Below are positions 1-4,025 of a DNA stretch of 15,910 nucleotides, in pieces. The stretch spans positions 1 through 15,910 of the IMG/VR virus record IMGVR_UViG_3300006056_000031; one strand, given 5' to 3'. Numbering within the stretch: the first letter of the stretch is position 1; each line of letters begins with the position of its first letter. The translations under genes were made by a program, and so were the position numbers. The notes under the pieces are model-generated. The model made no database searches. It saw nothing but the letters and a program-made list of their open reading frames with translations, and had not been told where the DNA came from. Source of the stretch: a virus (Duplodnaviria > Heunggongvirae > Uroviricota > Caudoviricetes).

Positions 1-1
1 C

Positions 2-103
2 TGCTAACGATTTGCAGCTTGGCGTTCGGTTTTTGGCTTACCGAAATGTTCAAGTTTACCACAATACTAATAGCCAAAAACTGACGCTAAGGTGCTGTTA
101 TAG
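2..103. repeat. attC-like hairpin site 1
   Basis: TGCTAAC (2-8), 5-nt spacer GATTT, left arm GCAGCTTGGCGTTCGGTTTTTGGCT (14-38) complementary to right arm AGCCAAAAACTGACGCTAAGGTGC (72-95) with one extra T in the left arm, then T-GTTATAG (97-103). Confidence 0.85.
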
Positions 104-148
104 CCAGTGCTTTTAATGGAATTATTAACAATTAAACAAATATAAAAA

Positions 149-547
149 ATGGAAAAGATTTTAAGAATTGAAGAAACAACCTTCAAAAAAACAAAAGACG
201 ATTGGCAATCATTTGAAGGTTTCCAAATCATAACGGATTTACAAACTATCCAAATTGGAATTAGCAACGGTCAATCTTGTTGTGAAAATTTTGGATGTAT
301 AATCACCAACGATGAAACCAAAGAATTTATTGGTGCGGAATTAAAGTCATTGGCAATTGTTGATAATGCCTTGAATAATAAAAAGATTGAAGAATTGGAA
401 TATTTGGATAGCGGTGGGGCAATGTTTGTAAATCTTGAAACAAGCGAGGGTTTACTTCAATTCGTTGCCTATAATGCACATAATGGATATTACGGACACG
501 AAGCAGTTTTAGTCAGCAAGCAACTTAATCATGAAGAGGGTCTTTAG
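149..547 (+). CDS. Cassette ORF, hypothetical protein (132 aa, QSCCE motif)
   Basis: ORF with A-rich leader; bounded by inverted repeats 97-110 and 547-560. Confidence 0.85.
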   Translation: MEKILRIEETTFKKTKDDWQSFEGFQIITDLQTIQIGISNGQSCCENFGCIITNDETKEFIGAELKSLAIVDNALNNKKIEELEYLDSGGAMFVNLETSEGLLQFVAYNAHNGYYGHEAVLVSKQLNHEEGL

Positions 548-553
548 CATTGG

Positions 554-685
554 CTATAACGTTATTCAGCTTGTAGTCAGGCGTGGAATAGAAGCGTAAA
601 TTTTCGGATTAGAAACAAGTATTAAAAAACACGCAAGCGATTGGATAAAGCCTAAAGCCACGCTTGCTACAAACTGATGTTAGGC
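554..685. repeat. attC-like hairpin site 2 (132 bp)
   Basis: CTATAAC (554-560), spacer GTTAT, arm TCAGCTTGTAGTCAGGCGTGG (566-586) pairs with CCACGCTTGCTACAAACTGA (658-677) with one extra T, then T-GTTAGGC (679-685). Confidence 0.85.
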
Positions 686-686
686 G

Positions 687-908
687 ATGTATTTTATTAT
701 GAGTATTTTAGAAGCAGGAACAGAAATTAAAGAAAAACCAACAGTAGGTCAAGAATTTATGGAATGGGCTGAACAGTATTGGTTATTAGACAAATTAGTT
801 AAAATTGAAAAACCTGACGAGTTTGCAGGAGAAAAATGTGATTATGATTATATGCGTAATATTTTCATTGAAAAGATAAACGGAATTATTAAAGACAGGT
901 TGGGTTAA
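687..908 (+). CDS. Cassette ORF, hypothetical protein (start 687 or 699)
   Basis: 73 aa ORF bounded by inverted repeats 679-693 and 907-921; no recognisable domain. Confidence 0.75.
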   Translation: MYFIMSILEAGTEIKEKPTVGQEFMEWAEQYWLLDKLVKIEKPDEFAGEKCDYDYMRNIFIEKINGIIKDRLG

Positions 909-914
909 TATATC

Positions 915-1046
915 GCCTAACGATTCTCGGCTTTGTTTAGTGCGGGATTATGAAAACGAAATTATCAACTTAAAAATAAATTACAATGGAAAAAGAAAAT
1001 TTGAATGAAGCAGAAAAACCCGCATTGAACAAAACCGATGTTAGCA
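915..1046. repeat. attC-like hairpin site 3 (132 bp)
   Basis: GCCTAAC (915-921), spacer GATTC, arm TCGGCTTTGTTTAGTGCGGG (927-946) pairs with CCCGCATTGAACAAAACCGA (1019-1038), then T-GTTAGCA (1040-1046). Confidence 0.85.
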
Positions 1047-1177
1047 GTAGTGCCAAACGCAGAAATGAAATAACAAAGATACTATATCGAAATTCAACTG
1101 ATGATTCAGAGTGTATGAGAATTAGATTTGAGGACATTCAAAATATAATTGACTTGCTGAATGATTTATACGACTAA
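986..1177 (+). CDS. Cassette ORF, hypothetical protein starting inside hairpin site 3
   Basis: ATG 986 lies in the hairpin loop after an A-rich leader; the right arm and core encode PALNKTDVSSSA; stop abuts inverted repeat 1178-1192. Confidence 0.7.
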   Translation: MEKENLNEAEKPALNKTDVSSSAKRRNEITKILYRNSTDDSECMRIRFEDIQNIIDLLNDLYD

Positions 1178-1185
1178 GGCATTAC

Positions 1186-1317
1186 TGCTAACGGACTGCG
1201 TGTATAAGAAGTGGCGTAGAACTTACCAAAACATTACAAAAATTAACGAATTATAAATTAATAAATAACCAATCCAAAAATGCCGATAGTAGCCATTTTT
1301 TATACCCGCTGTTATCT
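1186..1317. repeat. attC-like hairpin site 4 (132 bp)
   Basis: TGCTAAC (1186-1192), spacer GGACT, arm GCGTGTATAAGAAGTGGC (1198-1215) pairs with GCCATTTTTTATACCCGC (1292-1309), then T-GTTATCT (1311-1317). Confidence 0.85.
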
Positions 1318-1346
1318 TTCAGTTGCGGGTTTTAAAACAAAACAAT

Positions 1347-1535
1347 ATGACAGTAAAAAATCTAATTAAGGAACTTCTTGATTATAATATGGATGCAGAA
1401 GTTCAAGTAATTGCACATTGCCAAAAGTATGATTATAGCATAACTATTGGAGGTTCAGAAGGAGTTGAAAAGAACAACACTAAAGAAGTTTCTTTTTATG
1501 TTGATGAATTGTGTAATAATGAAAATATAAATTAA
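1347..1535 (+). CDS. Cassette ORF, hypothetical protein (MTVKNLIKELLDY...)
   Basis: ATG 1347 after an A-rich leader is preferred over the TTG at 1323, which lies inside the inverted repeat. Confidence 0.75.
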   Translation: MTVKNLIKELLDYNMDAEVQVIAHCQKYDYSITIGGSEGVEKNNTKEVSFYVDELCNNENIN

Positions 1536-1536
1536 A

Positions 1537-1713
1537 ATGAAAGTTAATAAATTGGAAATTGGTAAAAACTATTACCATGGTAATTGCAAAAAGAAATTTA
1601 AGTGTGTAGAATTAAATACAAACATTGATGAAAACCAATCTGATTTTGTTGATTATAAAAAAACATTACACAGGTTTTACAATGACGATATGTACTTAAA
1701 TAAGCAAATGTAG
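1537..1713 (+). CDS. Second ORF of the last cassette, hypothetical protein (58 aa; absent from ORF track)
   Basis: Manual translation MKVNKLEIGKNYYHGNCKKKFKCVELNTNIDENQSDFVDYKKTLHRFYNDDMYLNKQM*; starts 1 nt after the previous stop, and its TAG overlaps inverted repeat 1713-1727. Confidence 0.7.
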   Translation: MKVNKLEIGKNYYHGNCKKKFKCVELNTNIDENQSDFVDYKKTLHRFYNDDMYLNKQM

Positions 1714-1720
1714 CAATTGA

Positions 1721-1778
1721 AGATAACTATTATATATACGCAACTTTTTATAAAACATCAATTATCAATAAGTTATAT
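1721..1778. other. Integrase-proximal att-like site without hairpin (candidate attI equivalent)
   Basis: AGATAAC (1721-1727) ... GTTATAT (1772-1778), only 58 bp, no long internal stem, ends 1 nt before the integrase ATG at 1780. Confidence 0.55.
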
Positions 1779-1779
1779 T

Positions 1780-2583
1780 ATGAAAAATCAAAAAATTATA
1801 AAGATTTGCGAAGGAAAGTTTATATATCTAAACTACTCGTCTAGAACAAGAGACAACTACTTATCCCATATAAAGCATTTTTTAGAAAGTCTAGGTGATA
1901 AACAAATTATACATTGTAATTCTTCTGATTTTCAATCTTACTTGGAAACTTATAACTTCACTTCAGTATCACAACAAAATCAAGTAATCAATGCTATTAA
2001 GTTTTTATATAGAGAAGTATTATGTAAAAAATACGACAAAGTCTCATTCAAAAGACCCAAAGCAGAAAAGAAACTACCTAGAGTTATTGATGGTGATTTT
2101 ATCAAACAGCAGCTTTCAAAGATAAAAAACCTAAAACACAAAACAATACTAACCTTAACATACTCAGTAGGATTGAGGGTGTCGGAAGTTGTTAATTTAA
2201 AAATTGAGGATATTGATTCTAAAAGGATGTTGATTCATATTAAAAACGCAAAAGGGAGAAAGGACAGAATTGTACCTCTTTCCCAAAACGTCCTAGAAAT
2301 ACTCAGGGTGTATTACCAACAATATAAACCAAATCAATTTTTATTCAATGGTCAAAATTCAATACAGTATTCAATAGGTAGTTGTCAAAAAATCTACAAA
2401 AAATATATAGATTCTAATTCATCAATACACACTCTAAGACATTCTTCCTTTACTAATCTACTTGAATCGGGTACAGATTTAAGGATAATACAAAAAATAG
2501 CAGGGCATTCCTCCTCAAAGACTACCGAAATCTACACACACGTTTCTAACAATCTACTTAGTAAGATTAAACTACCAATATAA
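1780..2583 (+). CDS. Tyrosine recombinase/integrase (integron-integrase/Xer-like, no IntI insertion)
   Basis: Catalytic set GLR, KGRKDR, HTLRH, AGH, TEIYTHV intact; N-terminal SAM-like helical domain (QNQVINAIKFLY). ATG 1780 preferred to TTG 1717. Confidence 0.95.
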   Translation: MKNQKIIKICEGKFIYLNYSSRTRDNYLSHIKHFLESLGDKQIIHCNSSDFQSYLETYNFTSVSQQNQVINAIKFLYREVLCKKYDKVSFKRPKAEKKLPRVIDGDFIKQQLSKIKNLKHKTILTLTYSVGLRVSEVVNLKIEDIDSKRMLIHIKNAKGRKDRIVPLSQNVLEILRVYYQQYKPNQFLFNGQNSIQYSIGSCQKIYKKYIDSNSSIHTLRHSSFTNLLESGTDLRIIQKIAGHSSSKTTEIYTHVSNNLLSKIKLPI

Positions 2584-4025
2584 TGACCACAAAGAAAAAG
2601 AAAAAACCAATAGTTGATGTAGATGTTCTTAATTCTGACCAAAAGGAAGCTTTTGAGGAATTAAGGGACTTTATATGCGACAGGGATGATGAGAATGTTT
2701 ATGTCCTCAAAGGATGGGCAGGTACAGGTAAGACCTTCTGTATAAGTATTCTTGTTAGATACATTCTGGAGGTGGTTCATCCCAAGAGTGCTTGGTATAA
2801 AATTGCTGTGACCGGACCAACTAATAAATCGGTTCGTGTTATAAAAAAAACTAGCAATCTAAGAAATCCAAGAGTTACTTTTCAAACCATACATAAACTT
2901 CTTGGTCTAACTGAGAAGATAACCAATGACGGACAACAAGTTTTTGTGAATCAGGAAAAAAACTTCAAACCACAGATCAACTCAATTAAGCTTCTAATTA
3001 TAGATGAGGTTTCCATGCTTAATGATGATCTTTTTCACGAGATCCTAAAATATAGAGACAAGCTAAAGATTATATGTATGGGAGATCCTGCACAGATACC
3101 CCCAGTTGGTAAACCTGATTGCATTCCATTTAGAGACGAGTTAGCAGATTCTTACGGGATAAAAACACTGCAACTCAAAAAGATAATGAGACAGAAGGAA
3201 GGTAATGCCATCATAGATGCATCTGTACTTATCCGGGAAGATCTTTGGTCGGAAAGAAATCCGGTTAATCCTGTCACCTCCTTAAATTCACTTGGTGAGG
3301 GTGTTGAATTTCTAAACCTTAATGATGGTGAAACAAGGAAGGGATTTGGTGATATACTTGCCAAATATTTTAAATCCGAAGAATTCAAAGGTGATTCAGA
3401 ATACTGTAAGATTATAGCATGGAGAAACAAGACCGTTTCCAGTATGAATAACATTGTTAGAAGGATCATATTTGGCGAGGATGAATGTAGAACCAAGATA
3501 CTTGTTGGTGAAAAACTAATTGCCAATTCCCCTGTTATAATACAGGGAAATCTTGTATTATTTAATACGAACGATGAGTTCTCAGTTGAGTCTACCAAAA
3601 TAAAGGAGATGAATATGGTTCTAAAAACATTCTTGCCACCTATAGAGGTGAAACTCAAGTTCTATGATGCGGTAGTTACGTATCTTGACGATGAGGACGA
3701 AATTGAAAAAACCTCCATAGAAATACTGCACGAGGATAGCGAAGCTGAATTTTCCAAAATAGCAAATCTTCTTAAGCTGAAGGCCATAGAAAAGAAGGGC
3801 AGGGACAAAAGCTGGATTGACTATTATGATTTTCTAAGAAACTTTGCTGATGTAAATTTTGGGTATTGCATCACCGCGCATAAATCGCAGGGGAGTACTT
3901 ATAACACATCTTTTGTGCTGGAGGATGATATAGATCAGAACTATAATGTGGTTGAGAGAAACCGAATCAAATACACTGCTTATACAAGATCGAGCAAAAA
4001 AGTCTACGTTTTGAAAAGATTTTAA
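2583..4025 (+). CDS. SF1B DNA helicase, T4 Dda/RecD2-like
   Basis: Walker A GWAGTGKT, Walker B LIIDEVSM, GDPAQIPPV, IMRQ, ITAHKSQGST, YTAYTR motifs. Confidence 0.9.
   Translation: MTTKKKKKPIVDVDVLNSDQKEAFEELRDFICDRDDENVYVLKGWAGTGKTFCISILVRYILEVVHPKSAWYKIAVTGPTNKSVRVIKKTSNLRNPRVTFQTIHKLLGLTEKITNDGQQVFVNQEKNFKPQINSIKLLIIDEVSMLNDDLFHEILKYRDKLKIICMGDPAQIPPVGKPDCIPFRDELADSYGIKTLQLKKIMRQKEGNAIIDASVLIREDLWSERNPVNPVTSLNSLGEGVEFLNLNDGETRKGFGDILAKYFKSEEFKGDSEYCKIIAWRNKTVSSMNNIVRRIIFGEDECRTKILVGEKLIANSPVIIQGNLVLFNTNDEFSVESTKIKEMNMVLKTFLPPIEVKLKFYDAVVTYLDDEDEIEKTSIEILHEDSEAEFSKIANLLKLKAIEKKGRDKSWIDYYDFLRNFADVNFGYCITAHKSQGSTYNTSFVLEDDIDQNYNVVERNRIKYTAYTRSSKKVYVLKRF

Follow-up and report, generated by a model that had tools for sequence, protein, structure and literature searches.

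Evidence for reversed cassette polarity and a gene start inside an AAC...GTT hairpin in a phage cassette array

The locus, its hairpins and the recombinase gene

The window, i.e., the whole stretch of 15,910 nucleotides that was analysed, lies at the start of a viral contig of 79.9 kb with a CheckV completeness of 30%. Its first 1.8 kb contains four hairpins with AAC...GTT ends (6/97, 558/679, 919/1040 and 1190/1311), and a fifth AAC half-site at 1725-1727 is followed by a recombinase gene on the same strand. The features are summarized in Table 1. The array would represent the variable cassette region of a T4-like jumbo phage of Bacteroidota, in which each cassette consists of a hairpin followed by a gene. 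Gene starts are devoid of Shine-Dalgarno sequences and are preceded by A-rich leaders, and distant relatives of the window recombinase are carried by cultured Cellulophaga and Polaribacter phages, among them those of the Ingeline and Freya types, respectively; since both features point to Bacteroidota, the host is probably a member of this phylum.

Table 1. Coordinates of the features at the cassette array of the window
Feature	Position	Strand	Remarks
Hairpin 2	558..681	+	Goes with downstream gene c2 (699-908); c2 lies behind c3 in L083
CTAAC junction	917..921	+	Invariant; contains the presumed exchange point; block left ends at AAC-1 to AAC-3
Hairpin 3 (AAC...GTT, 121-nt class)	919..1042	+	5' arm 927-946, bulge 923-926, loop 947-1018, 3' arm 1019-1038
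AACTTAAA motif	967..974	+	19 nt before ATG; candidate cassette-borne initiation signal
Cassette gene c3 (P0001, 63 aa)	986..1177	+	Residues 1-18 from loop and 3' arm, 19-23 from R' box
R' box of c3	1040..1054	+	Translated VSSSA; complementary to 1178-1192 (15 nt, 93%)
R'' box of c3	1178..1192	+	Runs into the following CTAAC junction; block conserved up to 1193
Putative mobile unit c3 (hairpin interior, gene and R'')	921..1191	+	Cut placed only within TAAC(G)
Hairpin 4	1190..1313	+	Opens cassette c4 (ORFs 1347-1535, 1537-1713)
TAAC junction and attI-like region	1724..1779	+	Directly before the recombinase gene; alignment of 20 relatives
Xer-like tyrosine recombinase, 267 aa, presumed cassette recombinase	1780..2583	+	PF00589 and PF13495 matches

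The comparison loci are designated by L-numbers, L083 being the sister phage of the window. In most of the 80 related viral loci with upstream sequence, arrays of up to ~20 hairpins are situated directly upstream of the recombinase gene. Many related contigs end 0.2-2 kb upstream of this gene, and the hairpin arrays appear to break short-read assemblies. The related arrays provided 322 unique hairpins with the consensus AACG...TGTT, which fall into size classes of ~84 nt and ~121 nt. We also note near-invariant bases (94-97%) in the 3' arm of these 322 hairpins, namely T, A and T at -1, -7 and -15 from GTT, respectively; in the 5' arm, the G that follows AAC and a TT within the bulge are conserved.

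The recombinase matches XerA and IntI models, both below their cut-offs and with the IntI match in two stretches; it scores 156.9 bits against TIGR02249 (cut-off 265, match split in two stretches) and 103.9 bits against NF011946 (cut-off 435). Its best solved relative is the archaeal XerC-like 4a8e, which we take to be Pyrococcus XerA, and IntI4 (2a3v) aligns over residues 30-173 only. The enzyme is classed as not IntI because the IntI match stays below the cut-off and 267 aa are too short for an extra domain; judging from its size and the split IntI match, the enzyme probably does without the additional domain that marks the IntI clade. The stop codon of the recombinase gene overlaps the start codon of a gene for an SF1/PIF1-like helicase (TAATG at 2581-2585) in the same operon, and this helicase might supply single-stranded DNA.

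The ~55 nt preceding the recombinase gene are conserved in 20 relatives from exactly TAAC rightwards and unrelated to the left. The onset of conservation at TAAC suggests that the array ends at an attI-like site and that the exchange point lies at AAC. The region from TAAC to the recombinase ATG (1724-1779 and the 20 relatives) starts with TAT(T/A)ATATATA, contains a short inverted repeat of the ATCAAT..TATCAAT type, and may hold the recombinase promoter in addition to the attI-like site.

Hairpin 3 is real. Its R-box CTAACG (917-922) pairs with TGTTAG (1039-1044), and the arms at 927-946 and 1019-1038 pair with one mismatch plus wobbles, leaving a 4-nt bulge, ATTC, in the 5' arm. The hairpin folds with a z-score of -4.6 as + strand RNA and of -2.7 as + strand DNA, with none of 200 shuffles of the + strand as good; the - strand DNA is weaker (-1.9). 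The 72-nt loop (947-1018) includes the ATG at 986-988, which is the first ATG, GTG or TTG in a frame that opens after the TAA at 977-979. Codons 12-23 (1019-1054) read PALNKTDVSSSA, with V19 as the GTT core, and past 1040 the next in-frame ATG, GTG or TTG is the ATG at 1115 (M44). The original prediction, in which the ORF 986-1177 starts in the hairpin loop, the right arm and core encode PALNKTDVSSSA, and an early in-frame ATG is missing after 1040, is borne out by the letters of the window.

The strand selected to fold appears to be the one that carries the genes and has AAC in the 5' arm. In a strand-neutral set of 150 hairpins, detected by Watson-Crick complementarity alone, transition mismatches in the stems appear as G.T on the + strand in 300 cases versus 65 on the - strand (binomial p = 3e-37), and 122 hairpins favour the + strand versus 5 the - strand. 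This bias fits the folding of mRNA equally well as that of single-stranded DNA, the latter being presumably the folded substrate. In the G.T wobbles, the G mostly belongs to the 5' arm, which is non-coding, and the T to the coding 3' arm (252 vs 48). An Rfam search of window 1-2000 gave no match. A scan for promoters of the sigma-70 type returned 7 sites versus 9.2 expected, and a terminator scan returned no terminator-like sites or T-runs.

Cassette polarity and the exchange point

Cassette blocks shared between loci comprise a hairpin and the gene downstream of it, begin and end in the invariant TAAC, and are embedded in unrelated flanks. Hairpin 1 with gene c1 (window 5-572) recurs at L083 7192-7759 with 99.5% identity, hairpin 2 with gene c2 (557-925) at L083 8799-9167 with 99.7%, and hairpin 3 with gene c3 (917-1193) at both L083 8527-8803 and L087 381-658 with 100% and unrelated flanks, while the attI-like site and the recombinase (1723-3202) correspond to L083 11001-12480 with 99.1%. 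The order of the cassettes is c1-c2-c3 in the window versus c1-x-y-c3-c2 in L083, and the c3-then-c2 join is also found in a contig from a wastewater run. Further blocks running from AAC to AAC are shared by L025 and L071 (315 nt, 100%), L046 and L008, and L083 and L087, and one occurs as a duplicate within L093; the P0005 hairpin is unchanged behind two different upstream ends. No block of at least 95% identity bounded by GTT at both ends was found among the compared arrays. The bases to the left of the 917-921 junction are the R'' box of c2 (907-921), and at the other end of c3 contigs from three sequencing runs have loose ends at 1188-1193.

Two options had been proposed in the original prediction: either the hairpin belongs to the downstream gene and crossover takes place at the AAC end, or crossover takes place at GTT and the N-terminus is supplied by whichever cassette lies upstream. 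The same ORF was sought in other arrays, and the upstream hairpin, including the start codon, was found to move with the gene. The identical 63-aa protein and the intact hairpin are present behind at least three different upstream cassette ends (window, L083 and L087), and the exact protein occurs on contigs with differing neighbours. The first option is supported by the AAC-to-AAC blocks, whereas the second, as it was stated, fails with the identical hairpin and N-terminus behind different upstream cassettes. As judged from these sequence comparisons, the hairpin is linked to the downstream gene and the exchange is bounded by AAC, and the polarity would be reversed.

Scanning of metagenomes with a DNA pattern retrieved two loci, and the same kind of scan of viral contigs retrieved none. 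A tblastn search of five window cassette proteins against 80 related arrays returned almost no matches, the cassette content being too variable. The tblastx-based table of hairpin identities is noisy owing to short local matches and the two hairpin size classes, and served as a pointer only.

Classical polarity, in which crossover occurs at G/TT and the hairpin is owned by the upstream cassette, which supplies the N-terminus of P0001, is very unlikely. It would account for the sharp drop in protein and DNA identity of distant homologues exactly at GTT and for unitig breaks at GTT positions, and the single frame used by most loop-ATG hairpins, with GTT as a codon, would make hairpins interchangeable between genes. 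A precedent is known from integrons, where TIR-deficient cassettes rely on ORF-11 or on a start lying upstream (PMC8876359). Nevertheless, such polarity is at odds with an identical hairpin and full 63-aa protein behind three or more upstream ends, with c2 and c3 that are swapped in order between the window and L083 while each keeps its own upstream hairpin, with an array that ends at AAC beside the conserved attI-like site, and with the absence, among recent blocks, of any that is GTT-bounded on both sides. The private 15-nt R'/R'' repeats were also considered as proof of classical polarity and rejected, since either polarity joins the same boxes in the circle.

The linkage of hairpin and gene is not absolute. 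Altered hairpins are observed in copies in which the gene is identical or 93-98% identical. In L096, the gene is 100% identical while the upper stem and loop are different. In L089, L093 and L102, genes of 93-95% identity or less follow unrelated hairpin interiors, and the identity begins sharply at GTT. In L082, L084 and L086, the loop, 3' arm and gene are identical and a foreign 25-nt 5' arm breaks the stem; the swapped arms (L082:2891-2920, L084:1905-1935 and that of L086, aligned to window 919-946) result in duplex dG values of -9 and -7 versus -18. The contigs of these three loci show no recombinase within 10 kb, and the copies may represent fossil cassettes or have arisen by crossover within homologous loops. 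In one freshwater metagenome, unitigs break at both AAC and GTT, and the hairpin interiors differ in depth from the gene segments.

The altered hairpins and the assembly breaks at GTT and AAC indicate that hairpin and gene are separable. The likeliest source of the hairpin mosaics is ectopic recombination or conversion among many similar hairpins, which, unlike the unique genes, are multi-copy; site-specific exchange close to or at GTT may contribute to some extent. A weaker form of the second option thus appears to survive, in which hairpin interiors are replaced over longer divergence and the first 14-19 residues change along with them. There is a grain of truth in that option, as the fixed frame of most loop ATGs implies that a swapped hairpin would still start the gene. 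A separate case is contig 14 (2.3 kb) of run X3, which matches only the R'/R'' ends of c3 (window 1030-1057 and 1176-1193) separated by ~60 nt where c3 has its gene body of 120 nt; it resembles a cassette in which the private ends are retained and the content is different or deleted.

The mosaics also bear on a reading in which the hairpins are RNA elements, such as a start presenter, a processing site or a terminator, homologous recombination at the repeats shuffles the genes, as is the case for the PeSL regulatory cassettes of T4-type phages, and the recombinase is unrelated. The phage is T4-like, a type in which short repeats recombine avidly (PMC2839356, PMC4122927), the G.T bias is compatible with RNA folding, the mosaic hairpins with their 5'-arm and interior swaps resemble ectopic homologous exchange, and cassettes occur on phage contigs with no recombinase within 10 kb (L082 and L084). 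Homologous exchange, however, leaves the private 15-nt R'/R'' repeat unexplained, which an excised folded circle explains. Moreover, the junctions lie within five invariant bases even between unlike hairpins, the arrays abut the recombinase gene at a conserved TAAC site across related loci, and neither an excess of sigma-70 promoters nor terminator-like T-runs were seen. We consider this reading unlikely.

Probable translation from the hairpin loop

Thirteen homologues of P0001 were found, which are near-invariant from V19 on (45 C-terminal residues) and differ in the first 14-19 residues. Codons V19-C43 (1040-1114) lie before the only internal ATG and were compared at the DNA level between the window and five homologues. 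The synonymous:non-synonymous changes are 3:1 for L097, 5:0 for L100, 8:0 for L089, 5:0 for L093 and 9:1 for L102; read in either of the other two frames, most of these changes would be non-synonymous. As the differences are almost only synonymous in the ORF frame, the 1040-1114 segment is evidently translated in this frame, and as it is devoid of a start codon, initiation would have to occur upstream of 1040, inside the hairpin. In all recovered homologues, an in-frame ATG is located 42-57 nt before GTT, across at least six hairpin variants; the L096 copy was found by DNA pattern search, independently of ORF calling. Of the codons in the hairpin, near-cognate ones included, the ATG at 986 is presumably the one used for initiation.

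That the ORF 986-1177 is not made as annotated, the segment being non-coding or giving instead a 20-aa peptide from the ATG at 1115 or the product of a - strand ORF (970-1137), is the least probable of the readings considered. P0001 has no family in Pfam, NCBIfam or PHROGs and no neighbours in the ESM Atlas, and its N-terminal 18 residues are poorly conserved, which speaks for this reading. Against it stand the synonymous-only pattern upstream of 1115, which holds in the ORF frame and fails in the other two, and the near-invariance of the 45 C-terminal residues in 13 homologues. The - strand ORF 970-1137 is likewise without a family match, and the longest open frame lies on the + strand in 217 of 247 cassettes.

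The context of the ATG at 986 is that of other cassette genes, in which an A-rich stretch from -14 to -10 and an A at -3 precede the start and the second codon is GAA or AAA; the A-rich context is common to loop ATGs and the ordinary starts of cassette genes. A motif of the form A[AC]TT[TA]?AAA precedes 30 of 60 loop starts, mostly at -18/-19, versus 4 of 60 gene-body controls. The AACTTAAA motif of hairpin 3 could thus be a promoter or a ribosome-loading signal, and the loop motifs suggest that expression signals are cassette-borne. RNA-library contigs cover 540-749, 805-1167 and 905-1193; being assembled contigs, they are uninformative on strand, ends or transcription.

Gene starts within hairpins are common in the related arrays and are confined largely to one size class. 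The first ATG of the main ORF is located in the hairpin in 71 of 121 well-covered cassettes with long hairpins versus 3 of 62 with short ones, and the long hairpins appear to be long because they hold the gene start. In 192 unique long hairpins, a loop ATG open through GTT is found in frames 0, 1 and 2 in 91, 35 and 21 cases, frame 0 being that in which GTT is read as a codon, compared to 12, 5 and 4 in the - strand control; the frame-0 count thus exceeds chance. Cassette c4 has a different layout, in which two abutting small ORFs (1347-1535 and 1537-1713) are situated behind a single hairpin; a homologue of the first ORF in L083, 84% identical, lies behind a hairpin of the other size class.

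Proposed mechanism and relation to known systems

In classical integrons, promoterless genes are followed by attC, transcription is driven by a platform promoter, and expression falls with distance from attI. The cassettes described here would have the opposite geometry. Each would begin just after the TAAC of its own hairpin and proceed through the hairpin, the gene and the private R'' box to the next TAAC. Exchange would occur at TAAC on the gene-carrying strand, most likely through the Xer-like recombinase, which presumably cuts between A and C, and the array would terminate at the attI-like TAAC site right before the recombinase gene. We regard this reversed, integron-like exchange, taken as a whole, as likely, in a judgement drawn from comparative sequence data.

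The cassette genes read towards the attI-like site, so a Pc located there cannot drive them. A hairpin that lies upstream of the gene, in turn, can carry the start signals of the cassette. In the A-rich loop of hairpin 3, these would be AACTTAAA at -19 and the ATG at 986, with the 3' arm and R' box providing residues 12-23 of the 63-aa protein. More generally, a start module would comprise the loop motif and the ATG, followed by 14-19 leader codons whose frame relative to GTT is mostly the same, and such modules could be swapped between genes. It is conceivable, and proposed here only tentatively, that a second kind of integron, built independently, operates in jumbo phages of Bacteroidota: a Xer-like enzyme would cut the coding strand of 5' hairpins that act as portable start modules, and whatever gene fragment comes to lie behind such a hairpin would be expressed without a platform promoter.

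Such a phage-borne analogue would place the recombination site before the gene, where it is translated and appears to bring the start signals of the gene. The hairpin would serve both as a shuffling site and as a gene start, contributing the start codon and the first ~18 codons. If true, Xer-like enzymes gave rise to cassette capture more than once, a hairpin for DNA recombination can overlap a coding sequence and its translation start, and a way exists to express captured genes independent of position. Gene callers and integron finders that assume classical polarity would mis-assign the cassettes and truncate or miss small genes.

The array shares many features with integrons (IntI/attI/attC), especially the sedentary chromosomal ones. 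Small, unrelated and mostly co-oriented genes are located between imperfect palindromes with ...YTAAC/GTTRR... ends. The palindromes, i.e., the four window hairpins and the 322 unique ones elsewhere, are of attC type with RYYYAAC...GTTRRRY ends and unpaired bases. Complementary R' and R'' boxes, private to the cassette, flank each unit (679-693/907-921 and 1040-1054/1178-1192: 15 nt, 93%). As expected for attI, a conserved site is present beside the tyrosine recombinase gene at one end of the array. The cassettes are reordered and swapped between genomes at a fixed core point, and, read on the - strand, the order of recombinase, attI-like G/TT and cassettes is classical.

In contrast to integrons, every cassette gene of the window is antisense to the classical direction and points towards the recombinase. 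The hairpin, which is partly translated, is situated at the 5' end of the gene, the strand that folds appears to be the coding one, and the host is a phage. The blocks run from AAC to AAC and not as a gene followed by attC with crossover at G/TT. In the 5' arm, four unpaired bases bulge out beside AAC and the presumed cut, unlike in attC bottom strands, and this position makes the analogy to IntI chemistry a loose one.

Clusters of attC without an integrase (CALINs) have been reported in virulent phages including Polaribacter phage P12002L (PMC9892861). Similar to the present arrays, their attC-like hairpins separate small genes, and the phages include those of marine Flavobacteriia. The difference is that those sites were scored as classical attC by IntegronFinder/HattCI and tested with IntI1, and that the report is not known to describe a phage Xer-like recombinase, reversed polarity or start codons within the sites. 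In the literature searched, no phage cassette platform with a Xer-like recombinase was described as having reversed polarity or hairpins that are translated.

The closest functional analogue of a mobile module before a gene is PeSL of T4-type phages, which combines a sigma-70 promoter with a terminator hairpin and is exchanged by homologous recombination (PMC2839356, PMC4122927). PeSL stem-loop modules lie in hyperplastic regions before small accessory genes, to which they supply expression signals, and they mark the positions of gene swapping, possibly via mini-circles. The repeat module of the window is likewise upstream of an accessory gene, moves with this gene and marks exchange points. 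PeSL differs in that a dedicated recombinase and private inverted repeats are absent and the stem-loop is non-coding, and neither sigma-70 promoter-like nor terminator-like signals were enriched in the present scans.

Integron cassettes that borrow an upstream start, such as those using ORF-11/ORF-18 in attI1 and the aacA4 fusions (PMC8876359), resemble c3 in that an ORF crosses the recombination site and the DNA of the site contributes to the translation of the cassette gene. The start in those cases belongs to the platform or the upstream cassette and is position-dependent, whereas here it resides in the cassette's own hairpin, and an N-terminus that changes with the upstream cassette was not observed among the window, L083 and L087. 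A further likeness to chromosomal integrons, with their uniform attC repeats, is seen in the short hairpin class: many ~84-nt hairpins share a computed duplex energy of -18.7 (e.g., L009:9538-9621, L054:3983-4067 and L083:9161-9244) and are probably one near-identical hairpin that recurs in otherwise different arrays.
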